The translations under genes and the position numbers were made by a program. A stretch of DNA of 64,000 nucleotides from a virus (taxonomy: Duplodnaviria; Heunggongvirae; Uroviricota; Caudoviricetes): IMG/VR virus record IMGVR_UViG_3300005918_000018. One strand, written 5' to 3'. Below, in pieces: positions 1,372 through 57,463 of the stretch. The notes under the pieces are model-generated. The model made no database searches, was not told where the DNA came from, and saw nothing but the letters and a program-made list of their open reading frames with translations. Each line of letters starts with the position of its first letter. Position 1 is the first letter of the stretch.

Positions 1372-2454
1372 ATGGCTTGTGTTAAGACTGTACTACCCCC
1401 TTCTGCACTTGAACTCCGAAGACATTTTTTCATGGTACTGGGAACCCTATCAGGGTGGAAAACCGGCGTGTTTATCAATCACGAGATGGCCAAACGGGCT
1501 GTGGTTGAACATGCTGGGTATGACCCTGATAACCTTGCTCAATACGGCAACCCTGAAGATGGTTGGCGTATGGACGGAGGCCATGCTTCTTTTAAATGTT
1601 TTGGACGACGCATTTGGGATGTATTTCGTAGAGGTTATTGGCTGCAGAAAACACCTCTTACTGAAAAAGGTCCTAAACGAGGTCAATGGGGATTGACCAC
1701 TACAGGATTAGAACTGTCCCGGAGTTATGCAGGACTTCGACAGATAGGTAATAGCACTGCTCAATTCCTCGACCAACGCCTAAAGGAAACAGGAGGGGTT
1801 AATGGAGTGTTCTGGGGAACACTTCGAGCTGCCGTTGCTTCTAAATTCCCGATCTCTAATAAAGCTGGGCTTTTGGATGACCATATCCAAACTTACATGA
1901 TGAGAGTTATCGGTAGAGACGGACTCAGAAATAAAATTGCCGAAGGTAAAATCATTACCGATACACACATTGCTTCCTATGTGGTCAATTCTGCAAGGAA
2001 CGATATTCGAGATGCTGCTATTAATCCTGTTACCAGAGAACTTTACGGGGCAAGAACTGCTAAAGAACGTGCAGGAGAAACCAAGGTGAAGAGTTCTTGT
2101 AACACTTGTGGTATTACTTGGGATAGAGATGAAGGCTGTTGGGATGATATTATTGAACCTACTGTTGGAGATGCACTTGAAGCTAAAATGAGTTTTGAAG
2201 TCGTCTGGGGAAAAATCGAAAGTTCAATCAAACACCGATACCCCAAAGGATGGCCTCGTTACATGAAAATCCTCAAACTCAAAGCTGATGGAGATTCTCA
2301 TTCTGAAATTGCTACTTCTATGAAAATCTCTTTCGGTGAGGTTCTTAGTGCTTTGGCAAAAATCCAACTATGCCTTAATAAAGTACAGAGTTGGTATATT
2401 GACCCTGTAACCAAAAAAGAGAATGTTGGGGATAAGATATTTTATAACGTGTAG
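1372..2454 (+). CDS. putative sigma-like / HTH protein (weak)
   Basis: 360 aa. RBS AAGGAG 8 nt upstream of the ATG. The C-terminal 'DSHSEIATSMKISFGEVLSALAKIQ' resembles a sigma region-4 HTH. Divergent from 113..1171. Confidence 0.25.
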   Translation: MACVKTVLPPSALELRRHFFMVLGTLSGWKTGVFINHEMAKRAVVEHAGYDPDNLAQYGNPEDGWRMDGGHASFKCFGRRIWDVFRRGYWLQKTPLTEKGPKRGQWGLTTTGLELSRSYAGLRQIGNSTAQFLDQRLKETGGVNGVFWGTLRAAVASKFPISNKAGLLDDHIQTYMMRVIGRDGLRNKIAEGKIITDTHIASYVVNSARNDIRDAAINPVTRELYGARTAKERAGETKVKSSCNTCGITWDRDEGCWDDIIEPTVGDALEAKMSFEVVWGKIESSIKHRYPKGWPRYMKILKLKADGDSHSEIATSMKISFGEVLSALAKIQLCLNKVQSWYIDPVTKKENVGDKIFYNV

Positions 2455-2543: not shown

Positions 2544-5420
2544 TTAGATTTCAAACTTTAACCAATCTCGGACTGAGTTTGGCTGAGAAGCTTTTTTGGA
2601 TACTTTGCCGTCAGGATAACTTGCATGAAGCATTCGGGAGTACATGCACTTGGCTTCTTTGCTATGTTGTTTGAGGAATCCAGTGATGTTGGCATGATGC
2701 TCTGAGCGTCTCTTATGCAAGTCAGATGCATAATGGCCGATCTCTACTCGAAGTGAATTACACATTTTCATACCAAGAGTGGCTGTCTTAGGACGGAAAC
2801 CATAGAGTCCATTCCGACGGCCTTCAACACCTTTACTGGCAATCTTGGGTCCAACACCCTTCATAGCTTCAACAAGGATCTTAGCAGGCAGGCTGTCAGC
2901 TCGTTTTGCATGAGCTGATAAAAATGCTGACACATCATTGTCTTTATTCCAAGCCATCTTAGCTAATTTCGATGCTGTTCTGGTAGTCTTTCGGATACAG
3001 GCTTCACAATCACCCTGGATTTTCCGAGTGTAGCCGTACAAACCTGATGGGGATTTGGCTGCTTGTTTATTGAAGACACCGCCTAAACTTTCACCTTCTC
3101 CTGTAGGAATGGTGATTTGACCACTCTCTTTATTTACTATAAGGAGATTACGGCTGATCTGGTGTTTGAATTTCCAATCTTTTTCGTCAGAACCTTCTAA
3201 CATGAACTCACTAGGTTCAACTTTGGTACGGTATTTACCGTCAAAAGTGGGGAGTCCTGTAGTTTTCAGAGCTTCTGAGAGCTGTTTGAAAGCAGTGTCA
3301 ATATCTTCACCTGTGTTATCAGCTTTCTTATCGGTGAAGTTGTTTCGGTTCTTGAGATTCTGAAGACGCCATTTTTTAGCATCTTCTTCACTCATGTTTT
3401 CAGTCGGGTCAGCAGGCTTGCCTTCTTCAAACTTGGATTCTAATCCATCATCAGAACGACGTTCATCCATTGGAGTTCTGTCCCAGATACCACCTAATTT
3501 TTCAATGTCCTGATCCATTTGGATCTCATATTCCAGGTCATCCATTGCAGTATGGAATGAAGACAGTTTAGTGTTTGTCTTTTTCTCAGCAGTCTCAATC
3601 AGACCCACCAAGATTTTCTGGTTTTTATTGTCCAAACCATCAAACCAAACTCTCATCTTAGCTCCCTGCCGAAGGGTTTTTCCTGTACTTTTTTCGTACT
3701 GACTCACCAGTTCTCTGGTATCAGCATACAAACTTTTCACAGAAACCAACAGGTTGTAAACATCATCAATGTCCATCCTGTAATAGGATGCAGGGGATTT
3801 GGCAGCTTCTTTGAACTTGTCTTTGTTCAATTCCTTCTGTTCTTTCCATTTCTTCTTATCTTCAGGACTCATGTTCTCAGTCGGGTCAGCAGGGACACCT
3901 TCTTCAAACCGAGCAGACATCTCATCCTCTTGGATGGCTCGACGGCTTTCTCTTTTCACTTTGTCTTCCCAAGCAAAAGCAGCCATATTCAACCAGAAAA
4001 TAACATCAGCAATCTCATCGAAATCATGAAGTTTTTTAATCCCCCCAGCTCTGGAAGCATCAGATGCTTTCCAGTCCCAGAATTCATCAGGCATTTTGAT
4101 TTTGTTGAATTGGTAAGCCTTTGGTGGGAATCTGGAAGCTATGATGTCTCGGACATCACCACAGGTTTTGGCTGTCTTGATTTCAGGTTCCATCCCTGGC
4201 ATCAGGCTTCCTGGACCTTCGGGGAGTCTATCTTCTTCAGTTTGAATGATTTCCCCGGCAGTTAGGTTTTGAAGTTCATCCATAGCTGTCATAGTATTTT
4301 CCTCTTGGGCAAATTTCATATTCCCAGCAGGTTGTTGAATAGCTGATTTAAAGAACGTGATGAAATCTCTATGGAGTTTTAGATAACCATAGAAGGTATC
4401 ATTATTTTCGAAGTTGAAGTTTTGATAGTCTACTTTAACACTACCTTCAATCTCAGCATCTTTGAGCCACTGTTTAGCACTGCTGAGATTAAACTCCGTA
4501 ACATCCTCTAATTTCCCTATTGTGAGCCAAGGTTCGGCATCTTCCCACTCACCATCACCAGGAACCCAATCACTGTTGGGGTCTCCATTGTAGCTCGTGG
4601 GTTTGGAAGGTGATCGGTCATGAGCTGTTTCTAAACCATCATCATAATTGACAGGACCACCATGTTTAATAACCCCGAAATTCTTGATTACCTGATAATG
4701 TCCGTTAACAACAACACCCACGTTTTGGATGGTAATTTTATTGTTAGGTAAATTACCCTCATCCTCATCCCCCTCTATATCTTTAGGTCGGACAACAGGT
4801 TTAGGCACGATGAACCGAGCTCTACCTGAGAGGACGATATACAGATATGGCATATGAGCTGATTGTTTGCTCTCACTAGTAAGTTCTTTCAATTCATCAT
4901 AAGCAGTTATAGTATTTTCCCTTTGGGAGCCTAACCGTAGATACCAACCTGTGTGCTTCTCAAAAACCTTTACCAGTTGGTCAAAATAGACATTTTTGAA
5001 TTCTTTGATTTTTCTAGCACCTTTGGAAGGAGTGGTATATGAGAACTCTAAGTCGTAAAGGTCCATACCATTCAATGTGATTTCAAGGGTGTTACCTGTC
5101 TTGGAAGGCTTTCTGGCAGGCCATTGAAACCAAATCCCTTTTGGCCTTGCTACGACCCGTTTCACACCGAGAAACATTTTAAGTTTTCGAAGACCGCCCA
5201 GTTGTTCTATGATAGTCTTAGCAATCTGATTTGCTTGCTTTGAGGAAGGGCTGGCTTTCTTGAGCAGATCACCATACTCATCATTCATCTCCACCCATTT
5301 CTCAGCAGCTTCAGGATTCCCGTGTTCTTTGAGGTACTTAGGAACGTCCACTGGTTTCCCTTTGGGGTGTCGGCTGACTCGTTCCAGCTCTTTTAGAGCT
5401 TCTTTGGTAGATTTGCTCAT
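2544..5420 (-). CDS. large hypothetical protein with internal tandem repeats
   Basis: 958 aa. Two ~60-aa internal repeats ('FEEG[VK]PADPTENMS.ED.KKW..Q'). No recognisable catalytic motif. First gene of a long minus-strand operon (2544-8782). Confidence 0.5.
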   Translation of the reverse strand: MSKSTKEALKELERVSRHPKGKPVDVPKYLKEHGNPEAAEKWVEMNDEYGDLLKKASPSSKQANQIAKTIIEQLGGLRKLKMFLGVKRVVARPKGIWFQWPARKPSKTGNTLEITLNGMDLYDLEFSYTTPSKGARKIKEFKNVYFDQLVKVFEKHTGWYLRLGSQRENTITAYDELKELTSESKQSAHMPYLYIVLSGRARFIVPKPVVRPKDIEGDEDEGNLPNNKITIQNVGVVVNGHYQVIKNFGVIKHGGPVNYDDGLETAHDRSPSKPTSYNGDPNSDWVPGDGEWEDAEPWLTIGKLEDVTEFNLSSAKQWLKDAEIEGSVKVDYQNFNFENNDTFYGYLKLHRDFITFFKSAIQQPAGNMKFAQEENTMTAMDELQNLTAGEIIQTEEDRLPEGPGSLMPGMEPEIKTAKTCGDVRDIIASRFPPKAYQFNKIKMPDEFWDWKASDASRAGGIKKLHDFDEIADVIFWLNMAAFAWEDKVKRESRRAIQEDEMSARFEEGVPADPTENMSPEDKKKWKEQKELNKDKFKEAAKSPASYYRMDIDDVYNLLVSVKSLYADTRELVSQYEKSTGKTLRQGAKMRVWFDGLDNKNQKILVGLIETAEKKTNTKLSSFHTAMDDLEYEIQMDQDIEKLGGIWDRTPMDERRSDDGLESKFEEGKPADPTENMSEEDAKKWRLQNLKNRNNFTDKKADNTGEDIDTAFKQLSEALKTTGLPTFDGKYRTKVEPSEFMLEGSDEKDWKFKHQISRNLLIVNKESGQITIPTGEGESLGGVFNKQAAKSPSGLYGYTRKIQGDCEACIRKTTRTASKLAKMAWNKDNDVSAFLSAHAKRADSLPAKILVEAMKGVGPKIASKGVEGRRNGLYGFRPKTATLGMKMCNSLRVEIGHYASDLHKRRSEHHANITGFLKQHSKEAKCMYSRMLHASYPDGKVSKKASQPNSVRDWLKFEI

Positions 5421-9393: not shown

Positions 9394-9430
9394 CCTACTA
9401 CAACAACCCACAACCCAAAGAAACTAAGCT
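9394..9430 (-). promoter_or_regulatory. conserved phage promoter-like motif copy 1
   Basis: Plus-strand text CCTACTACAACAACCCACAA-N-AAACTAAGCT. The TAG stop of the GroEL gene lies inside the motif (GCTTAG). Confidence 0.55.
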
Positions 9431-10956
9431 ATAGTTATTCCAGCTTCAACTGTTAAAAGTGCAGATGCTACTGAAATTGCAGCAGAAATAACATTTTCTA
9501 CTACTAATGTTGGGTCTGCTATTATTGGATCAGTTCGTAAGTCCCTCACTTGATTCTGTAAGGCATCCCAACCAACCCACGGTTCATTAGGTAATGATTC
9601 GGCAATAAGTGTGGCAGATAACCCTAATCGTTGGGCATGAACATTAAGAGGTTGTAAGAGAGCTTTTTTTAGGACAGGGTGGTCTGTTTTCAGAGCAGCA
9701 AGCTGGTATGCTCGACCTCCCCCGGGAACTACTCCGCTTTTCAGAGCAGCTCTTGTTGAACCAAGAACATCCTCAACTCTTGCCCTACGTTCTTTCAGAG
9801 CAATTTCTGTTACACCACCGATTTTCAGAATAGCCATCCCTCCTGAGAGTTTAGCAATCCGCTTGAGAATCTTATCCTGATCGAAATCAGAGTCCGTTTC
9901 TTGATGTTTAAGTTCTTTAATTCTGGCCTGAGCAAATTCAAACTTGTCAGGGTATGTGGTAATGACTGTTTGATCTTTTTTAATGTTGGCCTGCCTGAAT
10001 GACCCAAACCATTCACTATCCCAGCTCCTGACATCATCTACCATCGGATCAACTAAATGAGCTCCGGCCATAGCAGCCACGTCTTTCAGGAATTCTTCTT
10101 GGTTATTGAAAGCTGGAGCATTGAAAGCACAGCATTCGATTATACTTTTGTTGTTATTCAGAAGCATTGTCCTGAAAGCATCTCCATCAATATCCCCAGC
10201 AAAAACCATCAGAGGGTTCTGAGGCCATTGACTGGCTACTTCCAGGATGTCTTTAATGTCGTCATATGTTCTGAGGGTTGATTTGACCACGGCAACAAGC
10301 GTACCTTCCATAATCCGTTCAGTCTGATCCCTGAGAAAACCTGTCCCTACAGGACCACATTCCAGCTCTGCTCCATCTTTGAATTCGAGTTTGGACTCAA
10401 CATGCTGACCATCTTCAATGACAATCATACCGTCTTGGCCGACAGCCATACACGCCTCAGACATTAACTTAGCAATTTCGTCATCCCCATTACAAGATAT
10501 CTTGGCAATCCCTTCAAGTTGTTTCTGGTTTTCAACAGGGGATGATATTTCTCTAATGGTTTTGAGGGTCTCCTGACCGGCAGCTTGTAGTTCTCTGGCT
10601 AATTGGATTGGAGAAACACCGGCCACAATCTGTTTATGGCCTTCAAGAAGGAGAGCAGCAGCCAAAAGAGCTACTGTTGTGGTGCCGTCTCCTACTTGTT
10701 CGTTGACTTTGAGGCAGGCTTCCTTGAGTATCTGGCAGCCCATATTCTCTAATTTGTTTTTTAGATGGATTTCTTGGGCAACTGTAACCCCATCTTTAGT
10801 GGCTAGAAGCCCCACCATTCGGTCGAGTAACGCTGTTCGACCTAATGGCCCATAAGTTGTTGTAATGGTTCGAGCTGTTTTCAGAGCACCTTGTAATATC
10901 TGATTACGTGCAGTCAAACCTATAGTAATATCTTTTGGCATTGAACCTCCAGACAT
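9424..10956 (-). CDS. groEL: chaperonin GroEL (Cpn60) homolog
   Basis: 510 aa. 'GDGTTTVALLAAALLLEG' and 'VTVAQEIHLKNKLENMGCQILKEA' match the GroEL equatorial domain, followed by a Gly-rich C-terminal region. Confidence 0.85.
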   Translation of the reverse strand: MSGGSMPKDITIGLTARNQILQGALKTARTITTTYGPLGRTALLDRMVGLLATKDGVTVAQEIHLKNKLENMGCQILKEACLKVNEQVGDGTTTVALLAAALLLEGHKQIVAGVSPIQLARELQAAGQETLKTIREISSPVENQKQLEGIAKISCNGDDEIAKLMSEACMAVGQDGMIVIEDGQHVESKLEFKDGAELECGPVGTGFLRDQTERIMEGTLVAVVKSTLRTYDDIKDILEVASQWPQNPLMVFAGDIDGDAFRTMLLNNNKSIIECCAFNAPAFNNQEEFLKDVAAMAGAHLVDPMVDDVRSWDSEWFGSFRQANIKKDQTVITTYPDKFEFAQARIKELKHQETDSDFDQDKILKRIAKLSGGMAILKIGGVTEIALKERRARVEDVLGSTRAALKSGVVPGGGRAYQLAALKTDHPVLKKALLQPLNVHAQRLGLSATLIAESLPNEPWVGWDALQNQVRDLRTDPIIADPTLVVENVISAAISVASALLTVEAGITIA

Positions 10957-14797: not shown

Positions 14798-14830
14798 ATG
14801 CCTATACCTTCTCTTATTAGGAGGTATGAC

Positions 14831-15598
14831 ATGAAAATAGATGATAACATTTTCAAATCCATCGTGGAATCCAGTTATTCAATTAGGCAGGTGATTCTAA
14901 AATCAGGGTTAATTCCTGCTGGTGGTAATTATGTAACGATTAAGAACCGAATTGCAGCTTTGGATTTGGATTCCTCTCATTTTCGAGGTCAGGGGTGGCT
15001 GAAAGGTTTGAAAAAACCTTATGGGAATCCTCGAACAAAAGCACTAAAAGAAATTTTTGATACTTATGAGAATTACCCATCACATAGGTTAAAAAATAGG
15101 CTTTTTAAAGAGGGTTTAAAACAAAAAAAATGTAATATGTGTGGACTTAGTATGTGGAATGGTGATGCTATAGCTTTAGAACTTCACCATCTGGATGGGG
15201 ATAAGAAAAATAATAATTTAAGTAATCTTCAGATACTATGTCCAAATTGTCATGCAACTACCAATAATTATAGAGGTAAAGGGGTAAAAACTAAGTATGA
15301 GACGTTATGTTCTGATTGTAGTAAGCCTATCCAACACAGTTCTTTACGTTGCATATCTTGCGTAAAAGAGTCAAAAAAACCGACCCCTGTTTGTTCTAAG
15401 TGTGGAAAACAGGTTAGCAAAAAATCAAGTTTATGTCGTTCTTGTTATAATGACAAAGAAAAATTAAAAAGTAACAAACCTCTTTTTGAAGTCTTAAAAA
15501 AAGATATAGAGGAGTTAAATTATACAGGGGCTGGGAAAAAATATGGTGTTTCAGATAACACAATTAGGAAATGGTTAATATCATATAAGCCTGGGTGA
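14831..15598 (+). CDS. HNH homing endonuclease
   Basis: 'HHLDGDKKNNNLSNLQILCPNCH' is an HNH motif. RBS AGGAGG sits before the second Met (the listed ORF starts at 14798). The last codons (..KPG) and the TGA stop are encoded by the 5' acceptor of the downstream tRNA. Confidence 0.8.
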   Translation: MKIDDNIFKSIVESSYSIRQVILKSGLIPAGGNYVTIKNRIAALDLDSSHFRGQGWLKGLKKPYGNPRTKALKEIFDTYENYPSHRLKNRLFKEGLKQKKCNMCGLSMWNGDAIALELHHLDGDKKNNNLSNLQILCPNCHATTNNYRGKGVKTKYETLCSDCSKPIQHSSLRCISCVKESKKPTPVCSKCGKQVSKKSSLCRSCYNDKEKLKSNKPLFEVLKKDIEELNYTGAGKKYGVSDNTIRKWLISYKPG

Positions 15599-18465: not shown

Positions 18466-18541
<76 letters not shown>

Positions 18542-24090: not shown

Positions 24091-24914
24091 ATTAATTTCC
24101 TTTAAAAAACAACAGGAGTCAAGAGGTTAGCTAAATCCCCTGACTCCCATCTACTATTAACCCAAAATCATTGGCCAAGGTACGGGTTTGCACCGCATTG
24201 TCACCCGGTTAGAGTGGTTTTTACTGTTGATAACATTACCCAGCATCGAACACATCGAGCGATAAGTTACCCATCCCTGACCTATTCGGAATAAGGCTGT
24301 TTTTTTGTTCCCAGTTCACCCTGCTGGTAGGGTCTGTCCGACGGACAGAACAGGCTGGTTTAGCCCGCGGGAATGGTCATAGACCGTACAGCTTACCACA
24401 GGCTGACATCAGACCGGTTAATAAATTCTTAATAATAACCTGATCCTGGAAAACCGCTCTGCCACCCGGGGGAGGTGGGACTCTAAAGCAATTCTCCAAA
24501 ACCAGGTTATTACTAAGAAAAATAATGTCGGATTTCCGATTCGTCACCGACTATGTTCTTTAGCCTAGATTCCATATCATATCTAGCGTTGTGGAGTAAC
24601 TCCAAAGAACATTATTTATTGATCGTCTATAAAAATAATGTCAAAAGTGGGGTACCAGCCCTCCCAACTCGGCAATTTCAGAATAGCTCTAGGACGACCT
24701 GCTTGGTTAAAACAGTGATGGTCCTATGGTAGTTCTGAAGTACTTTTGTGGTCAAACTTTTGACAAACTGTTCCAAGAATTGGGGATTCTCACCCCGAGT
24801 AGCACACGAAGTCTACCAATGCAGCGGTTAACGCAGTTAATATGGCTATTAAAAGGTTTACCCATACCGCATGACCGTTCGGTATTCGGACCAGATTCCT
24901 GGAAAAATTAAATA
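24091..24914 (-). ncRNA. ~820-nt ORF-free highly structured region downstream of tmRNA (candidate large ncRNA)
   Basis: No ORF >60 aa on the minus strand. Numerous long-range inverted repeats (AATAACCTG/CAGGTTATT; ATGTTCTTTAG/CCAAAGAACAT; GCCACCCGGGGGAGGTGGGAC). I could not find RNase P RNA P4 or CR motifs. Confidence 0.3.
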
Positions 24915-25268
24915 TGGTGGAGCCGGAGGGTATCGAACCCTCGTCCAAAATAAATTCCTTAACAGATACTACATGCTTATTCCGTTACCTTTTTTCCACT
25001 CATGCGGAACGGACAAATCTTCTGAGTGGGTTGTTTAGAGTTTTGGTTCTCGGCTAATATGCCTCTAACGATACATATAATGCCCAGTCTTCCTGTCTCT
25101 GATGCCCTGACCTCGACCCGGAGACCCGATCAAGCAGGACAAGCAGCTTATGCTGCTATTGCTAATTCCGTGTTGGCAATTAAAAGTTTGGTCTATTTTT
25201 ACGTAGCCTAGACTAACTACGACATGCATCCGTCAGCTTCATTACCCTGTCGAATCCAGTTCGGCCCC
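24915..25268 (-). ncRNA. ssrA: tmRNA (ssrA), tag peptide (A)ANTELAIAA
   Basis: The 5' end GGGGCCGAACTGGATTCGACAGGG closely matches the tmRNA 5' consensus GGGGCUGAUUCUGGAUUCGACGGG. The 3' end has a tRNA-like T-arm GAGGGTTCGATACCCTC plus CGGCTCCACCA, which pairs with the 5' GGGGCCG. The internal reading frame GCC AAC ACG GAA TTA GCA ATA GCA GCA TAA (25148-25177) gives a tag ending in AIAA. Confidence 0.8.
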
Positions 25269-25294
25269 ATATTTGATTGTGAAAGATCATCTGT

Positions 25295-25332
25295 TCTTAT
25301 ATCAACAACCCACAATATATGAAAACTAAGCC
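25295..25332 (-). promoter_or_regulatory. conserved phage promoter-like motif copy 6 (upstream of tmRNA)
   Basis: TTCTTATATCAACAACCCACAATATATGAAAACTAAGCC, ~25 nt upstream of the tmRNA 5' end. Confidence 0.6.
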
Positions 25333-25348: not shown

Positions 25349-26581
25349 TTAAAGTAACAACCACATTTGCCTGATTCCAAAGTCCCGTTGCTTCATAATT
25401 TCCGACCTTGTTTGGGTCTCCCCAGATACTACCGACCGAAATAAAGGAGTAAGTAGCTCGTGAGCTATGTCTTTTAAGAATTTCCCTTTAGTGAAAATGT
25501 CCTCTTTCGGGATATAAATATCCATGTTGTTAGTAAGCATATCATATGTCTGCTTGTTGGCCGTAACTTTTATCACAGGAGCTATGGCAGAACCAAGTGG
25601 CGAGCCTATACCTGTGGTGAACATTGCAAGGTGTGCTCCACCAATGAGCATCCCTGTCATACATAAGAGATCCTGACCGGGACCATCCATGAAATAAAGC
25701 CCGGGGTAACTGGGGATTTTTTGAGAGTAAGCCAACACTTTTTGAATCTTTATTAAATCTGAATGTCCCATTTTACGGGAGTTACCCATGGATTTCTCAG
25801 TAAGAGTAGATATCCCACTATCAATGTTTCCCGGAGTAGGTTCACTTTCTTTGATGTATTTATCCAAAGCCTTAGTTACGTTATCATAGAAACCTATCAT
25901 GTTTCTCAGTTTGGTTACTGCTTCTTTTTTAGTTTTCTCATAAAAGTATTGTTCGGCTCCCAATAGCTCACTAGTCTGAGAAAAAATGGCAGACCCGCCT
26001 TGTTGTATCATGAAGTCTGTAAAGTGGCCGACTGCTGGGTTAGAAAACAAACCTGATGTTGGGTCTGAACCGCCATTTAGGATGGCTGCTGTGAGATTAC
26101 TGTAAGTTATCTCTGTTCGTTTTTTATCACGGATATTATTAAGGAGTACTTCTACTTTTTCTATCCCCTGCTCAATACAGGAATTGGTATTACCTGTAGC
26201 TTGGATATTCAAATGATCAAAAGTCACTCCAATGTCTGACATACGTTTAATCATGTTACTGGTTTTGTCCTGATAACCATCACAACAAAACTGGCCACAA
26301 CCTAAACTGACTAAGAGGACAGCTCCCACATTTGGGTGTTTAGCAGCCCCTAAGAGGGTCCTGAAAGCAACAACTTCATCCGAACCAGTATGGCAACACC
26401 CTGCCCCATGATTAATGGCTACACAGTAATTTTCGTTATGGTCTCCAAAGGACTCATCTTTGAAATGTTCAGCAATTTGATTAACGACGTTATTGGCACA
26501 AAAGACAGTAGGGATTATGAGAAGGTGGTTTCGGATACCGAAACTTTTACCTTGTCTGAAATATCCTTTTAAAATAGTCAT
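25349..26581 (-). CDS. UxaA/GarD-family sugar-acid dehydratase, catalytic (C-terminal) subunit
   Basis: 'LLIIPTVFCANNVVNQI' and 'NVGAVLLVSLGCGQ' align with E. coli UxaA 'WILPTVGCVNGIARQI' and 'NAGAVLVIGLGCEN'. Confidence 0.7.
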   Translation of the reverse strand: MTILKGYFRQGKSFGIRNHLLIIPTVFCANNVVNQIAEHFKDESFGDHNENYCVAINHGAGCCHTGSDEVVAFRTLLGAAKHPNVGAVLLVSLGCGQFCCDGYQDKTSNMIKRMSDIGVTFDHLNIQATGNTNSCIEQGIEKVEVLLNNIRDKKRTEITYSNLTAAILNGGSDPTSGLFSNPAVGHFTDFMIQQGGSAIFSQTSELLGAEQYFYEKTKKEAVTKLRNMIGFYDNVTKALDKYIKESEPTPGNIDSGISTLTEKSMGNSRKMGHSDLIKIQKVLAYSQKIPSYPGLYFMDGPGQDLLCMTGMLIGGAHLAMFTTGIGSPLGSAIAPVIKVTANKQTYDMLTNNMDIYIPKEDIFTKGKFLKDIAHELLTPLFRSVVSGETQTRSEIMKQRDFGIRQMWLLL

Positions 26582-26590
26582 GTTTACCAC

Positions 26591-27262
26591 CTACCCTTTC
26601 AAATCGTTCAACCCCAAATCATTATTTAGGAAACGATAAAAATTAAGAATGGTCTTACGTTTTCTTTGCAAGCTTTCGTTTTTTTCTTCTTTTTCCGAAA
26701 TCAGTTTCTTGATATCAACCATATTACCAATTCGGATTGAGGCCCCTTTGGGGATAACTGAACAGGCTCTGCCTAAATGAACGTCCTTGTCAAAGGTGTC
26801 GTTCATTTGTTTCTCAAGGCGTTTGTCCGTTATCTGAATCTCATTGATTCTCAGGCTATGCCCAGGGTTCATATTTTTAAGAGCAGAAGCCATCCCGTTC
26901 TTATTGGTTGCTGTAAAGGGTTCCAGAAGTTTTTTAATTTCTTCATTCTCTAAAACAACATTACAGACATGAACAACGTCTCCCATAACAATATCCTGAG
27001 CAGCATAGCCGATAGGAGCATTGAATTTTATGACGTTACTGCCTTTAGGGATTGATGTGATGGCAACTTTGGTGTTGGAAAAGGTGTTTTTATTAGGAGT
27101 GATAGTGCCGATTTCACCTTTACCTTCCTCAAAGAGAGGGTAAGGGACACCAGCTTCTAAAAATTTCTCAGGTGATTTACAAGAATCACATACGGGAGCT
27201 TCATCCATAATAAGGGCTGTAGCTACATTATCCTCTGCGTTTATTTTGTAAAAAACATTCAT
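26591..27262 (-). CDS. UxaA-family SAF-domain (N-terminal) subunit
   Basis: 'DNVATAL' and 'GSNVIKFNAPIGYAAQDIVMGDVVHVCN' match UxaA 'DNVAVAL' and 'GANVIKYGLPIGYALADIAAGEHVHAHN'. Split-gene arrangement with the downstream catalytic subunit. Confidence 0.7.
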   Translation of the reverse strand: MNVFYKINAEDNVATALIMDEAPVCDSCKSPEKFLEAGVPYPLFEEGKGEIGTITPNKNTFSNTKVAITSIPKGSNVIKFNAPIGYAAQDIVMGDVVHVCNVVLENEEIKKLLEPFTATNKNGMASALKNMNPGHSLRINEIQITDKRLEKQMNDTFDKDVHLGRACSVIPKGASIRIGNMVDIKKLISEKEEKNESLQRKRKTILNFYRFLNNDLGLNDLKG

Positions 27263-27295
27263 GATACCACCTGTTGTTAAAAATGGAGCCGTATG

Positions 27296-28040
27296 AGGGA
27301 ATCAAAAACCAATATTCGTTAAATTGTTATCTCCTTAGTAGGAGGTGTTAATTATGTTACCCTTATTTACTGATGAAGATTTCAAAAAAGCTAAATGCAA
27401 AGAAAAACTCCCACTTAAATGTAAACACTGTGGTGAAATATTTTATCAAACTAAACATCGTATATATGCAGGGCTACGTCCAACTCATACAAACACCACA
27501 GATTTCTGTAGTCAGGCTTGTAGTGTTAAATATCGACGGATAGGGCATCGGGTTGAGTTTGACTGTGAACAATGTAATCAACCCTCCAGTAAAAGATTAT
27601 CTCAATATAAAAGATCCAAACATCATTTTTGTGGCCATATTTGTTCAGCTACCTACTATAATCAAAGGAAACAAACTGGAACTCGGAGGTCAAAATTTGA
27701 AGTTTGGGTTGAAGAGCAGTTGGTCTCCTTATACCCTGACTTGGAATTCCATTTCAATAGGAAAGATGCCATCCAATCTGAATTGGATGTTTATATCCCT
27801 GAATTAAAACTAGCCTTTGAAATCAACGGTATCTTTCATTATGAGCCAATCTTTGGACAAGATAAGTTATCTAAAATACAAAACAATGACCATCGAAAAT
27901 TTCAGGCTTGTGCCGAGAAGGGTATTAGTCTTTGTATTATTGATACTTCAACTTTGAAATATATTAAACCTAAAAAAACTCAAAAATTCCTTGATATTAT
28001 TACCACTATCATTGATCAAACTCTTAGCCTTGATAATTAA
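27296..28040 (+). repeat. dispersed paralogous cassette A (leader + Zn-ribbon/nuclease-like CDS)
   Basis: ~80% nt identity to 56590-57330 and 59620-60359, including the 45-nt leader CAATATTCGTTAAATTGTTATCTCCTTAGTAGGAGGTGTT. Confidence 0.7.
27345..28040 (+). CDS. Zn-ribbon + putative nuclease-like C-terminal domain protein, paralog A
   Basis: 231 aa. Repeated CxxC pairs N-terminally. Conserved C-terminal 'RRSKFEVWVEEQLVSLYPDLEFHFNRKDAIQSELDVYIPELKLAFEINGIFHYEP'. Confidence 0.6.
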   Translation: MLIMLPLFTDEDFKKAKCKEKLPLKCKHCGEIFYQTKHRIYAGLRPTHTNTTDFCSQACSVKYRRIGHRVEFDCEQCNQPSSKRLSQYKRSKHHFCGHICSATYYNQRKQTGTRRSKFEVWVEEQLVSLYPDLEFHFNRKDAIQSELDVYIPELKLAFEINGIFHYEPIFGQDKLSKIQNNDHRKFQACAEKGISLCIIDTSTLKYIKPKKTQKFLDIITTIIDQTLSLDN

Positions 28041-28089
28041 ACCAAGTTACCATCTGACACCACGAGGAGGTGTTTTGATTACGTCAGAT

Positions 28090-28160
28090 AGCCGTATGAG
28101 GGAATCGAACCCTCCTTACATCCTTACCAAGGATGTGCCCTACCACTGGACTAATACGGC
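28090..28160 (-). tRNA. tRNA-Thr(GGU)
   Basis: Minus-strand read GCCGTATTAGTCCAGTGGTAGGGCACATCCTTGGTAAGGATG..GAGGGTTCGATTCCCTCATACGGC. Anticodon loop TTGGTAA. Confidence 0.7.
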
Positions 28161-28162
28161 AT

Positions 28163-28238
28163 TGGTACCGTCAAGCGGAGTCGAACCGCTGACACCCTGG
28201 CGACAAACCAGGTGCTCTGCCAACTGAGCTATGACGGT
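28163..28238 (-). tRNA. tRNA (anticodon loop TTTGTCG; UGU/Thr-like, position 37 atypical)
   Basis: Acceptor ACCGTCA/TGACGGT plus A-CCA. D-arm TAGCTCAGTTGGCAGAGCA. T-arm AGCGG-TTCGACT-CCGCT. Confidence 0.6.
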
Positions 28239-28252
28239 CAAAGGTTAGTTAC

Positions 28253-30223
28253 CTAACCAATGTAATATGTTAAAGAACGGTCTTTATTTTCTTTGAGGAC
28301 CAACTCAGTAAATTCTTCAATGGTGATAGACTTCACTGTTTTGTCATCACGTCTCCTCACGGAAACCGTGCGTTGATCTACTTCTCTTTTACCCACGATA
28401 AGCATGTAGGGTACTTTCATTTCGTGAGCCAGACGGATTTTGTGTTGGAGGCTCTCATCTTTGTCATCAACAGTAGCACGGATCATCTGGCTACGGAGGA
28501 TGTCTTTAACCTCATTTGCATAACCACCGAACTTTTCACTGCTGATCGGCAGAATACGAACCTGTTCCGGGGCTAACCAAGTCGGCATTGCTCCGGCATA
28601 ATGCTCAATGAGGTTTGAAACAAAGCGTTCCAGAGATCCCAGAATAGCTCTGTGGATCATGATAGGAGTTTGCTTAGTGCCATCCTCAGCAATGTAAGTC
28701 AAACCGAATCTCTCAGGCATTGAGAAATCAACCTGAATGGTTCCACACTGCCATGAACGTCCGATAGCATCCTTGAGATGGTAATCAATCTTAGGACCGT
28801 AGAAAGCACCGTCTCCTTCATTGATGGTGTAATCCATATCTTTCTTGTCCAAAGCAGTTTTCAAAGCAGCCTCGGCAGCTTCCCATTGCTCATCAGTACC
28901 AATGGAGTTATTAGGTCTGGTGGACAGTTCCACTTTGTAGTCCAGGAAACCAAAGGCACTGTAGGTACTATGCACCAAGTCAATCACACTGATGATTTCA
29001 TCATTCAACTGTGACGGAGTGCAATAGATATGAGCATCATCCTGAGTGAAGCCTCTTACACGAGTCAACCCGTGGAGTTCACCGGACTGTTCGTGACGAT
29101 GGACAAAACCAAACTCAGCCATCTTGACAGGCAGATCCCTGTAGGAATAATGATGGTCTTTGTAAACCAAAGTGCCACCAGGACAGTTCATAGGCTTGAC
29201 AGCATAGTCGATAATACGGTCAGAGGACATTTCATTGTCTTTCTCGTTGATTGTAGTGGCGTACATCTTGTCTTTGTAGTTATCCCAGTGACCACTTTTT
29301 TTCCACATCTCGTTATTCAACAAGGTTGCTGTTCTGATCTCCTCAAATCCACGTTTAAAGTTCATTTCCTTACAGAAGTTGAGGACGTTATCAAATATCA
29401 CAGTACCATTGCCGTGCCAGAACGGGAAACCTTGAGCTTCCTTATGGAAGCTGAATAAATCAAGTTCTTCACTTTTTCCCAGTGTTCGATGGTCTCTTTT
29501 CTTAGCTTCTACCAACATTGCAAGGTGGGCATCAAGTTCTTCTTTGTCAGAGAAAGCATACACATAGATACGTTGAAGCTGCTTTGGTGTACCCATCCAA
29601 TAAGCACCAGCAACTGATTTTATCTTGAAGCTGTCGGGGTTGATACAACCCGTAGATGGAACATGCGGTCCTTTACACCAGTCCGTGAAATCAGCCTGTT
29701 TATAGAAACTGGAAACATCACCAACACCAACTTTGTCAGTAACCATCTCCATTTTAAGAGGGGATTTCATCTTTTCCAAGAGTTCCAAACTCTCTTCTTT
29801 AGACAACTCGAAGCGGGTGACAGGGATGTTTTCTGCAATGATTCTTTTCATCTCAGCTTCGATTTTCTCGAAGTCCGAAGGGCTGAATTTATACTCTGTA
29901 TCAAAATCATAGTAAAATCCATCGTCAACAGGCGGTCCTGCTGCAAGATCAATATCAATATCACTATACAGTCTGCTTACAGCCTGAGCCAAGATATGTG
30001 ATGAAGTGTGGCGGGTAACGTCAAGTACTTCGGCAGCACTGACTTCTTCAAGGATCATGTCCTCTGTAATTGGGGTTGCCAGATCAATAATCTCACCGTT
30101 GACTTTGGCTACCAAGTCTTTTACACCAAGAATATTTCCGAGAGGTATTCCTACCTCTGCCACAAAATCTTCACTGTTCGGGTTTGAAAAAGATATTATA
30201 CATTTACTCATAGCATACTCCAT
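28253..30223 (-). CDS. thrS: threonine--tRNA ligase (ThrRS)
   Basis: 656 aa. N-terminal TGS-like region. 'HTSSHILAQAV' is the editing-domain HxxxH. The class II core 'FVHRHEQSGELHGLTRVRGFTQDDAHIYC' is motif 2/3. C-terminal anticodon-binding region. Confidence 0.85.
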   Translation of the reverse strand: MEYAMSKCIISFSNPNSEDFVAEVGIPLGNILGVKDLVAKVNGEIIDLATPITEDMILEEVSAAEVLDVTRHTSSHILAQAVSRLYSDIDIDLAAGPPVDDGFYYDFDTEYKFSPSDFEKIEAEMKRIIAENIPVTRFELSKEESLELLEKMKSPLKMEMVTDKVGVGDVSSFYKQADFTDWCKGPHVPSTGCINPDSFKIKSVAGAYWMGTPKQLQRIYVYAFSDKEELDAHLAMLVEAKKRDHRTLGKSEELDLFSFHKEAQGFPFWHGNGTVIFDNVLNFCKEMNFKRGFEEIRTATLLNNEMWKKSGHWDNYKDKMYATTINEKDNEMSSDRIIDYAVKPMNCPGGTLVYKDHHYSYRDLPVKMAEFGFVHRHEQSGELHGLTRVRGFTQDDAHIYCTPSQLNDEIISVIDLVHSTYSAFGFLDYKVELSTRPNNSIGTDEQWEAAEAALKTALDKKDMDYTINEGDGAFYGPKIDYHLKDAIGRSWQCGTIQVDFSMPERFGLTYIAEDGTKQTPIMIHRAILGSLERFVSNLIEHYAGAMPTWLAPEQVRILPISSEKFGGYANEVKDILRSQMIRATVDDKDESLQHKIRLAHEMKVPYMLIVGKREVDQRTVSVRRRDDKTVKSITIEEFTELVLKENKDRSLTYYIG

Positions 30224-30361
30224 TCATTTTGCGTTGTACTAAACAATAGTAAATCTTGCACTACAATTATATTTACCCCAAACTCGTCAAGAGCACTCAC
30301 TCCTGCTTCGGGATAGTAACGACCTACTTGTAAGATTTCAGTCTTCATTGAATTCACCTTT

Positions 30362-30437
30362 AAGTAAAAAATGGAGCCAACAGCCAGAATCGAACTGGCC
30401 ACCTACTGATTACGAATCAGTTGCTCTACCAGATGAG
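30362..30437 (-). tRNA. tRNA-Thr(CGU)
   Basis: Minus-strand read GCCGACATAGCTCATCTGGTAGAGCAACTGATTCGTAATCAGT..CCAGTTCGATTCTGGCTGTTGGCTCCA. Confidence 0.7.
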
Positions 30438-30456
30438 CTATGTCGGCTTACCCTAG

Positions 30457-34954: not shown

Positions 34955-34992
34955 GCTTATCCCAACAACCCACAAGAAATCAAAACTAAGCC
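34955..34992 (-). promoter_or_regulatory. conserved phage promoter-like motif copy 7 (divergent pair, minus)
   Basis: Upstream of the CobT-like gene start (34916). Confidence 0.6.
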
Positions 34993-35013
34993 AAAAACAA
35001 AAATAAAATAATT

Positions 35014-35055
35014 AGCTTAGTTTTGAAAAGTTGTGGGTTGTTGAAGTGTAAAAAG
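35014..35055 (+). promoter_or_regulatory. conserved phage promoter-like motif copy 8 (divergent pair, plus)
   Basis: AGCTTAGTTTTGAAAAGTTGTGGGTTGTTGAAGTGTAAAAAG, 43 nt upstream of the CobS-like start. Confidence 0.6.
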
Positions 35056-39389: not shown

Positions 39390-40799
39390 ATGTCATTTAA
39401 ACAAATAGTAGGTAAAGAAACTGCAAATCAATACATGATGCCTAAAATCAAAACTATGAACTGTAATGTTATTGCTTTTTTGAGTGATGCTTTATTTGAA
39501 GCATCAGAAGAAGCAGTTTGGCAGCAAGCATATAATGCTGCATCTTACCCAGGAGTAACACATGTATTTTTGATGCCTGATACACACTCAGGATATGGTG
39601 TACCAATAGGTTGTGTGATTGTTACCGAAGGAGTTATAATCCAGGCAGCAGCTGGTTATGATATATCATGTGGAATCCTCTATGCCAAAATAGAGGGGCT
39701 ATCTGCAGATAAAGTTATAGACCCTGCAAAACGCCGTCAATGGATTGATGAGATTGAACTCAGGGTAGCTACTGGAATTGGAACCAAACGTCCAGACAAG
39801 ATGCCTGTTTTCACTCACAAGTTTTTGGAGGAAGTTTTGATTACTGGGGGTCATGCCCTTGGTTTGTCTAAAGACGTTTGTGAACGTGTATCTTTACCTG
39901 TGGACACTAACCATTTCGACATGAAACGTATCCCACGAGCTACCAATAAGATGGTCGGCCAGCTAGGATCTCTCGGATCGGGCAACCACTATTGTGAACT
40001 CCAAGTAGACCCTACAGATTCGTCCGTGTGGTTGATGATTCACTGTGGTAGCCGTGGTTATGGTTGGCAAACTGCCGAACATTTCCTGTATGCTGGAGCA
40101 GAAGCTCGTGGCTTGGCCAAGAACCGCCGTGAAGAATCATGGTTATATGCTGACGAGCAGTTGGGCAAAGAGTTCTGGGCACACCATAATGCAGCTGCTA
40201 ACTATGCCATCTGCAACCGACACGTCATTGCTCAACAGGTTTCTGAAGCAACTAACGTAGTTTTTGGTAAAGGTGCTAAAACTTACTACGAGATCAGCCA
40301 TAACCTGATTCAGGAAGAAGAAATCTATGTTCCTGATGGTTCGTTGGTTAAGGGATTTGTTCACCGTAAAGGTGCTACTCGTGCTTTTCCTGCTGGACAC
40401 CCTGCTTTGTATAACACCAAGTGGTTTGATACTGGCCACCCTTGCCTGATTCCAGGTTCAATGCTGCACGGTGCAGCTATCTTGTTCCCAGAAGAAGGTG
40501 CCAAGAAGTCTGGTTGCTCCGTGAACCATGGCTCTGGTCGTTTAATGGGTCGGTATGCTGCCAAGAGAGAGTTCAAGGAACTCCAGCAGGACATCGATGA
40601 CGAGATGAACAATGCCAAGGTAGAATGCAAGGATGGTTTTATCGTTGAAGGTATCTTGATGAACTCTCGTCAAACTCCTTTGGACGAATGTGGCCATGCT
40701 TATAAAAGCCTGGATGCTGTTCTGAATGTTTTGGAAGAAGAAAATGTGGCCAAGATACATCGTCGTATGTATCCAGTTGCCAACTTAAAAGGACTTTGA
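39390..40799 (+). CDS. rtcB: RtcB RNA-splicing/repair ligase
   Basis: 'MPDTHSGYGVPIGCV' (PDxHxGxG), 'GYDISCG', 'VHRKGATRA' and 'VNHGSGRLMGR' are the RtcB metal and GTP motifs. Confidence 0.85.
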   Translation: MSFKQIVGKETANQYMMPKIKTMNCNVIAFLSDALFEASEEAVWQQAYNAASYPGVTHVFLMPDTHSGYGVPIGCVIVTEGVIIQAAAGYDISCGILYAKIEGLSADKVIDPAKRRQWIDEIELRVATGIGTKRPDKMPVFTHKFLEEVLITGGHALGLSKDVCERVSLPVDTNHFDMKRIPRATNKMVGQLGSLGSGNHYCELQVDPTDSSVWLMIHCGSRGYGWQTAEHFLYAGAEARGLAKNRREESWLYADEQLGKEFWAHHNAAANYAICNRHVIAQQVSEATNVVFGKGAKTYYEISHNLIQEEEIYVPDGSLVKGFVHRKGATRAFPAGHPALYNTKWFDTGHPCLIPGSMLHGAAILFPEEGAKKSGCSVNHGSGRLMGRYAAKREFKELQQDIDDEMNNAKVECKDGFIVEGILMNSRQTPLDECGHAYKSLDAVLNVLEEENVAKIHRRMYPVANLKGL

Positions 40800-43723: not shown

Positions 43724-44269
43724 TTAAGATACTTCATCTGTCCAGTATTTCAGACTACCGAGGTAATCTTTCCAAGATTTCGGAATGTCTTTCCGGCCTA
43801 GACCAGGCAGCCCATTCCCAGCCAAGTGCTTCGGCTTGAAAGGTTTCTGGATAAGAGCCATACGAGCCTGCTGTGGAGTACGACTTTTTTTCTTCTGGTT
43901 GCATTTGTAACAAGCTACGACGATATTCTGCCAGAGAGTTCTACCACCTTGACTCTTGGGAATAACATGGTCGAAGGTGAAATCCTCTATTGCCGTTTTC
44001 TTCCCGCAGTATTGACACTGGCCTTTGTCCCTGATCCAGATATTCCGACGGTTGAACTTCACACCTTTACGGAAGTATTTGGTCATCTTGGCCACAAATC
44101 TGATAATTGACGGTAATGGGAAAGTCGTAGAAGGAGACCGTAAAAATAAACCCTCGTACACATCTTCGATCACAGCTCGACCGGAAGTTATCCATGTGAT
44201 AGCTTTTTGCCATGACACTGTATTGACGGGCATGTATGAACTATTTAGGACAAGAACTTGGGTTTCCAT
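43724..44269 (-). CDS. HNH endonuclease
   Basis: 'CQYCGKK..FTFDHVIPKSQGG..NIVVACYKCNQKK'. Confidence 0.8.
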   Translation of the reverse strand: METQVLVLNSSYMPVNTVSWQKAITWITSGRAVIEDVYEGLFLRSPSTTFPLPSIIRFVAKMTKYFRKGVKFNRRNIWIRDKGQCQYCGKKTAIEDFTFDHVIPKSQGGRTLWQNIVVACYKCNQKKKSRTPQQARMALIQKPFKPKHLAGNGLPGLGRKDIPKSWKDYLGSLKYWTDEVS

Positions 44270-50300: not shown

Positions 50301-51098
50301 TTATAAAATGGTTCCGGGAGAAGGAATCGAACCCTCGTCTGATGAACCAAAATCATCCGTCTTGCCGTTAGACGATCCCGGAATGTATCCTTTTTTTACC
50401 CATTTTCTTATTGAAGTATTACTAACTCCCAACATACTAGCAACCTCCAACTGGGTTTTTTCTTTTAGCAGTATTAAAAGTTCTTGAAAAGATATATCTA
50501 CTGGGATAGCTTTTGTTTTCATTATGCAAAAGAAACATAACCCAGATTTACCATGTTTTGTGATTGCACGGCCACATTTTTTACAATTATATGCCTTTTT
50601 TCGTTTGGAAGCCCCACAAAAAGTAGGTTGCTGGCTGTTGCAATTAGGGCATAGTAGACGTAAATTTTCTAATCTGTGATCGTCTCGGACTCCGTTTATA
50701 TGATCCAAAACTAGAACTAATGGTTTCTTGTCCCACATAGGGAGCAACCCGCAAAGGACACATTTGTTTTTTAGTATTCCTTCGTGTAAAAGACGTTTTT
50801 TCAAATGACCCCTACTGTAAGTAGAGTGTTCCACCATTATTTTTTCAAGTGGTCTTTTCTGTGCTTGTCTGCGTTCCTTTAGTTTCCCACAGTTCTTTTT
50901 TAAACTGTTTCGTACAAACTCATTGTAATCTAAACCCATTTCTTGCATTCTGTTTTTTACAGTATAGTGGTTCCCCCCAACCCCTTTCAACCCAAAAAAC
51001 TCTAATACTTCTCTAATGGAATCACTATTGTTTAGAAGTTCGATGAATTTGTCGTCTTCTAATTTCCATATAGGGCTTCTTCGTTTTCTAGTGTGCAT
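50301..51098 (-). CDS. HNH homing endonuclease (paralog of 14831..15598)
   Basis: 'VLDHINGVRDDHRLENLRLLCPNCN'. The probable start is MHTRKRR (GAGG RBS). The ORF reads ..IPG then continues 27 codons straight through the tRNA gene. Confidence 0.75.
   Translation of the reverse strand: MHTRKRRSPIWKLEDDKFIELLNNSDSIREVLEFFGLKGVGGNHYTVKNRMQEMGLDYNEFVRNSLKKNCGKLKERRQAQKRPLEKIMVEHSTYSRGHLKKRLLHEGILKNKCVLCGLLPMWDKKPLVLVLDHINGVRDDHRLENLRLLCPNCNSQQPTFCGASKRKKAYNCKKCGRAITKHGKSGLCFFCIMKTKAIPVDISFQELLILLKEKTQLEVASMLGVSNTSIRKWVKKGYIPGSSNGKTDDFGSSDEGSIPSPGTIL
50309..50380 (-). tRNA. tRNA-Gln(UUG) (tentative), embedded in HNH ORF 3' end
   Basis: Minus-strand read TCCGGGATCGTCTAACGGCAAGACGGATGATTTTGGTTCATC..GAGGGTTCGATTCCTTCTCCCGGAACCA. 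Confidence 0.6.
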
Positions 51099-51323
51099 AC
51101 ATAAACCTCTGTTATTAATAGTTAGAACCTGTACTATTATCAATGGTATAGGTTTTTTAGAATAAGTCAAGGTTTAATTACCTGCTGGACGACACCCGAA
51201 TAATTATCGGTTATACCACATAATATGAGTGTAAGATTTATCTACCTTACCACTCGTAACATCCGAGGGTTTAACCACTCAAGAGTGACAGGTTTATTAT
51301 CATCCTTAGACATTGGCATCTCC

Positions 51324-52944: not shown

Positions 52945-53523
52945 TCATGGTGTATACATTCCTCTATGTTCTTCCAAGAACTCATTAGTACCATGTCGAG
53001 TATCTTTACCCGATAAAATATCTTTTAATCGGCGGTCGTATAATATTACGTTCACGGCAGCAGCCAAATTCAGGCAATGGGCTGTCGGAATCGTCACGAA
53101 ACTGTGTGCCCAGTTCAGAACCGACTTTGGTAATGACCCGTCTTCTGGCCCAAAGATATAAAGAGCATTCTCTGGGTGTTCAAAGTGTACCAGATTTTCC
53201 GAGTTCGGTCGAACTTCTATGGCCACAGGGGTCACATCAATTTTATCAAAAGCTTTCCAATATTGATCATTGTGAATAACTTCTACTTTTTGATAACCCT
53301 TCATCCGTTCCTCCCGTGGGAGTCGGCTGAGGTCATCCAATTTATCAATCACTCGGTCTCCTGTGAACCAAAGCTGGTTCATTCCCCAACAGGAACAGGC
53401 TCTTAGAGCATTGCCTACGTTGTGTGGGTCACGGGGATTAATGAGAAGGACTCCTGGTGGCACCGGTGTTCGTTTCTTCATCATCTCTTGGATGTATTTG
53501 GCTTTAACTGCTTTAGTGCTCAT
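52945..53523 (-). CDS. SpoU/TrmH-family RNA 2'-O-methyltransferase (SPOUT)
   Basis: 'HNVGNALRA' is motif 1. 'IFGPEDGSLP' is motif 2. 'IPTAHCLNLAAAVNVILYD' is motif 3. Confidence 0.75.
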   Translation of the reverse strand: MSTKAVKAKYIQEMMKKRTPVPPGVLLINPRDPHNVGNALRACSCWGMNQLWFTGDRVIDKLDDLSRLPREERMKGYQKVEVIHNDQYWKAFDKIDVTPVAIEVRPNSENLVHFEHPENALYIFGPEDGSLPKSVLNWAHSFVTIPTAHCLNLAAAVNVILYDRRLKDILSGKDTRHGTNEFLEEHRGMYTP

Positions 53524-57330: not shown

Positions 57331-57377
57331 TCCAGTTTCCATCCAATGCCTCGTGGAGGCTGCTTGACATCATTGGA

Positions 57378-57450: not shown

Positions 57451-57463
57451 AAAAAAGTTTTTC

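Follow-up and report, generated by a model that had tools for sequence, protein, structure and literature searches.

We analyzed 64,000 nucleotides of the IMG/VR virus record IMGVR_UViG_3300005918_000018 (this whole stretch is called the window below) and found a transfer-messenger RNA (tmRNA, ssrA) gene on its minus strand at 24915..25268. Our results support a bona fide full-length tmRNA gene of the standard one-piece type. We conclude that a very large phage, represented by a contig of at least 402 kb, very probably carries this as a functional tmRNA gene and expresses it through a transcription programme of its own. The gene had been proposed from the sequence alone, and both ARAGORN and the Rfam covariance model for tmRNA (RF00023) called exactly the ends given in that original prediction. 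RF00023 matched 24915..25268 (minus strand) end to end, over model positions 1-374, with a score of 159.3 bits (E = 6e-63), far above the gathering score of 47 bits below which the proposal was to be given up. ARAGORN read the tag ANTELAIAA* from a coding part at positions 92-121, the same tag as had been proposed from the frame GCC...TAA. The minus strand opens with GGGGCCGAACTGGATTCGACAGGG, read from 25268 downward as already described, and its 3' end is ...GAGGGTTCGATACCCTCCGGCTCCACCA at 24915 (also written ...GGACGAGGGTTCGATACCCTCCGGCTCCACCA). The features of the locus are:

24915..25268, minus strand: complete one-piece tmRNA gene with encoded CCA end, 354 nt (ARAGORN and RF00023).
25262..25268, minus strand: 5' strand of the acceptor stem, GGGGCCG, including the G3 of the G3·U pair; 7/7 pairs with 24919..24925.
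P2a, CAGGGUAA/UUAUUUUG: 8/8 pairs.
P2d, UGCAUG/CAUGUA: 6/6 pairs.
25189..25221, minus strand: pseudoknot PK1, stems CGUAG/CUACG and UAGUCUA/UAGACCA; 5/5 and 6/7 pairs.
25148..25177, minus strand: tag frame GCC AAC ACG GAA TTA GCA ATA GCA GCA TAA, encoding ANTELAIAA* (RNA positions 92-121).
25143..25156, minus strand: helix 5, GCAGC/GCUGC, 5/5 pairs, with the stop codon in its loop (AUAA).
25095..25140, minus strand: pseudoknot PK2, stems GUCCUG/CAGGGC and GUCUC/GAGAC; 6/6 and 5/5 pairs.
25035..25084, minus strand: pseudoknot PK3, hairpin 185-217 and stem UUAGAG/CUCUAA; second stem 6/6 pairs.
24981..25029, minus strand: pseudoknot PK4, stems CCACUCA/UGAGUGG and UCCGUU/AACGGA; 7/7 and 6/6 pairs.
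24915..24942, minus strand: T-arm GAGGG UUCGAUA CCCUC (5/5 pairs), acceptor strand CGGCUCC, discriminator A and CCA.
25026..25211, plus strand: spurious open reading frame (ORF) of 61 aa with a GTG start, wholly within the tmRNA gene and antisense to it.

The acceptor stem GGGGCCG/CGGCUCC is fully paired and contains G3·U, the alanine identity pair, and the resume codon GCC (Ala) lies directly after UUAAUU. PK1 stands upstream of the tag and PK2 to PK4 downstream of it, and both stems of each pseudoknot are complementary. The original prediction had paired the T-arm end and its acceptor CGGCTCC-A-CCA with the 5' GGGGCCG, which the 7/7 acceptor and 5/5 T-arm pairs bear out. Detection of pseudoknots and of a tRNA-like domain had been put forward as a further check: all four pseudoknots and the tRNA-like domain are present, and they are conserved in relatives.

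The 354-nt sequence was identical on four independent metagenome contigs, and the window DNA was 99.9-100% identical on JGI, ENA and Logan contigs, which indicates that the locus is not an assembly artefact. We rejected a permuted two-piece tmRNA (RF04321): its partial matches of 35.7 and 23.1 bits (versus 47) overlapped the standard tmRNA. The original prediction had also described the gene as masked by the plus-strand ORF at 25026..25211. This ORF does lie antisense to the tmRNA, but the masking arises purely from listing ORFs mechanically and is an artefact, since real gene callers did not call it: public gene calls on identical contigs leave the interval 24915..25268 empty. Annotation pipelines should mask this spurious ORF.

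We further analyzed the conservation of the tmRNA in diverged relatives, which were reached through homologues of the UxaA-like gene upstream of it:

L054, L068 and L069: neighbour protein 88% identical; tmRNA syntenic, 135.8 bits; tag ANMGFAQAA; no encoded CCA.
L055 and L066: neighbour protein 76% (L055) and 71% (L066, partial 280-aa gene call) identical; tag ANQQVAIAA; tmRNA full length in L066 (156.8 bits), cut at the contig end in L055.
L061: neighbour protein 56% identical; tmRNA elsewhere, in a tRNA cluster, 122.4 bits; tag AKTKTTPVSYAYAA.

In L054, L055 and L066 the tmRNA is found directly behind the UxaA-like gene, as in the window. Four phage tmRNAs were aligned on a hand-built structure including the pseudoknots (87%, 73% and 49% identity to the window copy). 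In this alignment, 84.7% of the cells were paired, versus 33-43% in controls with slid partners, and 29 pairs had changed on both sides, versus 5-9 in the slid controls. The G3·U pair was invariant (4/4 phage homologues), and its neighbours in the acceptor stem covaried (G4-C to C-G, C5-G to G-C and C6-G to U-A). Three pairs covaried in the T-stem, four to five compensatory pairs were found in the PK3 hairpin stem, and compensatory changes were present in P2, PK1a, PK1b, PK2a, PK3a, PK3b, PK4a and PK4b. PK2b presented invariant pairs or mismatches only, without compensatory change in the relatives. Because 29 pairs had compensatory changes against 5-9 in the controls, the RNA is kept by selection on its structure in this clade. 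Six metagenome copies that are 99.9-100% identical to the window gave no covariation signal. In addition, no tmRNA was found near the homologues (36-52%) of the peptidoglycan-binding protein at 34 IMG/VR loci; the synteny of the tmRNA with this protein therefore fails at distance.

This evidence for structural selection speaks against the gene being a pseudogene or a passenger, and thereby bears on the possibility that the tmRNA is a recently captured host gene (a neutral passenger, a decaying pseudogene or an attachment-site remnant for the host ssrA). Phages often integrate at tmRNA genes and carry 3' fragments of them (PMC3029335), and a few Bacteroidota tmRNAs have an identical 3' tRNA-like domain: the 25-mer GGTTCGATACCnnCCGGCTCCACCA of this domain was matched exactly, among bacterial representatives, only in three Bacteroidota metagenome-assembled genomes (MAGs). 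The tag of those three tmRNAs is also 9 codons long. However, the gene of the window is full length, no integrase was recognised among the genes neighbouring it (on these two grounds an attP fragment of a host tmRNA gene was ruled out), a phage promoter motif is present, and the gene has no close bacterial counterpart. It has also been kept down to 49% identity with compensatory changes. We consider a recent capture very improbable.

One lineage of relatives presents a separate feature at the tmRNA 3' end. In L054 (6630..7315), as well as in L068 and L069, a 186-aa endonuclease ORF lies directly after the tmRNA; the L054 protein matches the PHROG endonuclease, endonuclease VII and HNH families. 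No CCA is encoded at the functional 3' end of the L054 tmRNA, and one change in this end covaries with the 5' end. A decayed copy of the T-arm, the acceptor strand and CCA is found about 610 bp downstream, beyond the endonuclease gene. This insert looks like a homing-endonuclease cassette that would be aimed at the tmRNA 3' end and would supply a replacement 3' end. A group I intron in the T-loop of L054 was rejected, since nothing is missing from the first copy of the T-arm and acceptor, and this copy covaries with the 5' end. The 'permuted tmRNA' that ARAGORN called at the insert is spurious.

The three closest lineages present the tags ANTELAIAA, ANMGFAQAA and ANQQVAIAA, in a 9-codon frame throughout. 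They share the N-terminal AN and the C-terminal A-x-A-A but differ at positions 3, 4, 5 and 7, and nearly all nucleotide changes in the tag frame are non-synonymous. The more distant L061 has a frame of 14 codons. The tags of the three closest lineages end in IAA or QAA, and none of the tags in LAA, which is the commonest tag ending and consists of three residues critical for ClpX recognition (PMC9382460). Because the tag interior drifts and the endings are IAA or QAA rather than LAA, the selected activity is probably ribosome release rather than efficient ClpXP-type proteolysis of the tagged products, as far as can be judged from these sequences. ANTELAIAA* was found in no IMG/VR contig by exact or degenerate search, and the 5' 20-mer of the tmRNA had no match among viral contigs. 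The drift of the tag under a conserved structure makes an old question testable, namely whether phages use tmRNA for release or for proteolytic tagging.

The same drift could be taken as a sign that tagging is irrelevant and that the tmRNA acts as a decoy, which titrates the host SmpB or alanyl-tRNA synthetase or competes with the host tmRNA, and so blunts trans-translation or a tmRNA-dependent response. The unconstrained tag interior among close relatives, the lack of a canonical LAA end and the finding of no phage SmpB in the sequence examined are in line with such a role, and the tmRNA-like molecule of mycobacteriophage DS6A, which consists of the tRNA-like domain only, has been suggested to titrate SmpB (PMC4131195). 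However, the resume codon, the 9-codon frame (14 codons in L061), the in-loop stop, helix 5 and the four pseudoknots are maintained with compensatory changes, and the AN start and the A-x-A-A end are conserved in the three closest lineages. Since a pure decoy would need neither an mRNA-like domain nor pseudoknots, their maintenance speaks against this role, and we regard a decoy as improbable.

The expression of the tmRNA under a programme of the phage is suggested by a repeated motif. We found 12 exact copies of GCTTAGTTT-N11-GGGTTGTTG in the window, versus none in 100 dinucleotide shuffles. A short distance downstream of every copy stands a Shine-Dalgarno sequence with ATG, a tRNA (Thr at 18466 and Met at 57451) or the tmRNA, and an element like tAGTAAGAaag trails most copies. 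The motif is unlike a canonical sigma-70 site and, by its spacing, unlike a T4 MotA-type site. It is probably a phage-specific promoter. The original prediction had placed a copy 25 nt upstream of the tmRNA; this copy is real, its core ending 34 nt and its ATATAAGAA tail about 25 nt before the mature 5' G. The features concerned are:

9429 (minus), 11782 (plus), 18419 (plus), 22543 (minus), 23107 (minus) and 25331 (minus): first base and strand of motif copies.
34991 (minus), 35015 (plus), 39338 (plus), 51360 (minus), 57498 (minus) and 58243 (minus): first base and strand of the other motif copies.
25296..25331, minus strand: motif copy of the tmRNA, GCTTAGTTT-N11-GGGTTGTTG followed by ATATAAG; core 25303..25331.
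25269..25295, minus strand: presumed 5' leader of the precursor; three lineages conserve its final 18 nt (TCTTTCACAATCAAATAT).

The L054 lineage keeps the motif ahead of its tmRNA, and related contigs contain it as well. The L055/L066 lineage lacks it before the tmRNA and has TATAAT at the corresponding place. A promoter scan also reported a sigma-70-like site (TTGATA-18-CACAAT) overlapping the leader, which would be removed by RNase P. Elsewhere in the window, two motif copies form a divergent pair at 34963-35043.

The window corresponds to about 3016..67015 of a 402,136-bp metagenome contig. It contains 32 tRNA genes (ARAGORN), which are scattered over both strands and some of which are duplicated, and a threonyl-tRNA synthetase (ThrRS) that passes its NCBIfam equivalog cut-off. 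Genes for dUTPase, dCMP deaminase, dNMP kinase, guanylate kinase and a CobT/VWA-like protein are also present. PHROG endolysin families are matched by a protein that contains a peptidoglycan-binding domain, and other PHROG matches include phage GroEL, RtcB and metallophosphoesterase. The tmRNA itself is surrounded by genes for the UxaA-like protein, an unknown protein, an HNH endonuclease, ThrRS, the peptidoglycan-binding protein and a hydrolase of the metallo-beta-lactamase fold. Three genes share the island of the tRNAs and the tmRNA:

39390..40799, plus strand: RtcB RNA ligase.
52945..53523, minus strand: SpoU/TrmL-like 2'-O-methyltransferase.
9424..10956, minus strand: GroEL.

The presence of these three genes with the tRNAs and the tmRNA suggests a set for translation maintenance or RNA repair (counter-defence). 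Relatives at the protein level were found only in phage and viral collections: the 34 IMG/VR loci, a 485-kb uncultured huge phage and Tenacibaculum phage pT24, as well as GroELs of Flavobacterium, Vibrio and other phages. No DNA match was found among 50,697 deposited phage genomes in near or distant mode. From this context, the replicon is very likely, although not proven to be, a phage.

Several observations weigh against a functional tmRNA gene of a phage. No capsid, portal or terminase gene was found within the 64-kb window, and no SmpB was detected in it (Pfam, all ORFs of at least 150 aa). A window scan revealed no intrinsic terminator directly behind the tmRNA. ANTELAIAA* was found in 0 of 185,579 representative bacterial genomes.

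The missing structural genes would be accounted for if the replicon were a megaplasmid or another cellular element and the gene that element's or the cell's own ssrA, and some large plasmids have similar sets of translation genes (Al-Shayeb et al., PMC7162821). However, the protein relatives belong to viral collections (the 34 IMG/VR loci and phage genomes), and genes for many homing endonucleases, an endolysin-type peptidoglycan-binding protein and nucleotide metabolism of the phage type lie in the window. The window also has 12 copies of a single promoter-like motif, and its tRNA genes are duplicated and scattered. Moreover, smpB and ssrA are often linked in bacteria, and no smpB adjoins the ssrA of the window. 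A plasmid or cellular origin thus seems unlikely.

For the tmRNA of a phage, we propose the following activity. The host RNase P would trim the 5' end of the precursor, and the host alanyl-tRNA synthetase would charge the tmRNA with alanine. With SmpB supplied by the host, or encoded by the phage beyond the ~74 kb examined, the tmRNA would enter ribosomes stalled on broken or stop-less mRNAs; translation would switch to the tmRNA frame, (A)ANTELAIAA would be appended and the ribosome would be released. Together with the 32 tRNAs, ThrRS, RtcB, the SpoU-type methyltransferase and GroEL, the tmRNA would sustain a high translation capacity during the breakdown of mRNAs and tRNAs, whether the phage or host defence nucleases cause it. 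Dependence on the host SmpB is assumed: a tblastn search of the window with an E. coli SmpB as query returned none, and no SmpB was found by Pfam in the annotated flanks of the large contig (~74 kb covered in all).

The signals pointing to a host are contradictory. The tRNA-like domain matches Bacteroidota, whereas the heavy Shine-Dalgarno usage of the window (a core precedes 38 of 56 long ORFs, or 68%, versus 10% background) is atypical for Bacteroidota. The interiors of the Bacteroidota MAG tmRNAs could not be aligned with the window copy. Because the interiors of two viral and three Bacteroidota tmRNAs were unalignable, no donor or host can be named.

Directly downstream of the tmRNA, we identified a noncoding and strongly structured region, which may represent either a large structured RNA of a new kind or a long structured leader:

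24091..24914, minus strand: structured noncoding region of 824 nt, reaching up to the next gene.
~24427..24518, minus strand: 33-bp helix rich in G·U.
24331..24373, minus strand: block of about 43 nt identical to L054.
~24104..24148, minus strand: terminator-like hairpin with U-run.

This region contains no ORF above 61 aa and presents stops in all frames. A protein-coding gap was rejected, since substitutions relative to L054 lack codon periodicity (p = 0.49-0.75), versus p = 1e-26 and 1e-12 for the genes flanking the gap. The minimum free energy of the minus strand was -276 kcal/mol (shuffles: -230 ± 7 kcal/mol; z = -6.2), and the opposite strand was less stable (-235 kcal/mol). RNAalifold with the L054 homologue yielded 177 pairs, 24 of them compensatory versus 1-4 in slid controls, in a comparison of two sequences only with a structure derived from the same two. 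In L066, which lacks the region, 62 nt separate the tmRNA from the next gene. No Rfam family matched at threshold, and a scan to E <= 10 gave only sub-threshold matches: DUF3085 RNA (19.8 bits, E = 0.72; 24319..24398, minus strand) across the invariant block and the 3' end of a Bacteroidetes FopS-like sRNA (18.8 bits; 24103..24169, minus strand) at the terminator. The invariant block had no match in IMG/VR (0 matches). A search with a looser DUF3085-like pattern was discounted, as its 23 matches lie in GC-rich coding DNA and are seemingly due to chance.

The region may be co-transcribed with the tmRNA, although its membership of the tmRNA unit is uncertain. A bolder reading, which we hold only tentatively and think rather doubtful, combines two proposals. 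The tmRNA would be retooled: its tag, with a drifting interior and IAA or QAA in place of LAA, would no longer be constrained to serve as a host degron, and rescue would be retained but uncoupled from ClpXP-type degradation, or the tagged products would meet another fate. It would also occupy the 5' portion of a longer transcript, and this undescribed structured phage RNA of about 0.8 kb (24091..24914), with its own terminator, present in two lineages and absent in a third, would make up the 3' portion.

Other features of the window concern its mobile and metabolic genes. Upstream of the tmRNA, a 'threonine module' (25349..30447, minus strand) comprises ThrRS, tRNA-Thr genes (tgt, ggt and cgt), a small unknown protein and the UxaA/altronate-dehydratase-like protein. 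This module is conserved in the relatives L061, L063 and L067, and some relatives have a Sua5/YrdC gene beside ThrRS. Among the top matches of the UxaA-like protein, those cellular homologues that bear a name are archaeal (~43-46% identity). HNH-type homing endonuclease genes are found in the tRNA island at 14798..15598, 27345..28040 (plus strand), 43724..44269, 50301..51170, 56592..57343 and 59667..60359. The gene at 27345..28040 has a 75% identical paralogue at 56592..57343 and is absent at the same junction in L054 and L055, a distribution that marks it as mobile. Finally, a 214-aa protein identical to that of 60457..61101 was found in L052 (JGI 3300031227, Ga0307928_10007681), where the neighbouring genes differ from those of the window and include a response-regulator/GGDEF gene. 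This indicates mosaic relatives of the window phage in other samples.

Phage tmRNAs are already established, and the gene of the window is very likely a further example. It shares with the one-piece SsrA of the E. coli type (RF00023) the tRNA-like domain with G3·U, the T-arm, the ACCA end, the Ala resume codon, the stop in helix 5 and PK1 to PK4. It differs from bacterial SsrA by its phage-like replicon, its phage promoter motif, its 9-codon tag ending in IAA and the lack of an adjacent smpB. Full-length tmRNAs in large, tRNA-rich genomes are shared with the cluster C mycobacteriophages (Bxz1 and others) and Bacillus phage G: tmRNA has been described in eight cluster C phages and in phage G, and as the tRNA-like domain only in DS6A (PMC4131195). 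In contrast to these phages, the window belongs to another, probably aquatic, lineage without DNA similarity to deposited phages, and its tag is different (that of phage G is AKLNITNNELQVA; PMC12484599).

Two IMG/VR tmRNAs, both above the Rfam threshold, share the exact 3' 25-mer with the window copy:

L041 (113-kb contig), 2788..3203: tmRNA with a tag of 25 residues.
L042 (93-kb contig), 1726..2146: tmRNA with a tag of 29 residues.

Their interiors, however, could not be aligned with that of the window copy. These tags are unusually long (AEDNTEAPESDALWAEFDACESVLV and AKNEDGICQSIVDQINARDRVDEGMLLAA, respectively), and the first has a double stop and no AA terminus.

A resemblance in gene content is also seen to the metagenomic huge phages (Al-Shayeb et al. 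2020) and to the marine megaphage Mar_Mega_1, which has one tmRNA and 50 tRNAs (bioRxiv 10.1101/2021.07.26.453748). They share with the replicon of the window a size above 400 kb, dozens of tRNAs, an aminoacyl-tRNA synthetase and a tmRNA, i.e. a 'translation takeover' set. Some of the huge phages encode SmpB along with tmRNA (PMC7162821), whereas none was found here in ~74 kb. Two leads of separate interest are the structured 824 nt and, in a relative, the insertion of an endonuclease gene at the 3' end of the tmRNA. Relative to earlier surveys of phage tmRNAs, our analysis adds covariation at the level of lineages, a dedicated promoter motif and the drift of the tag.

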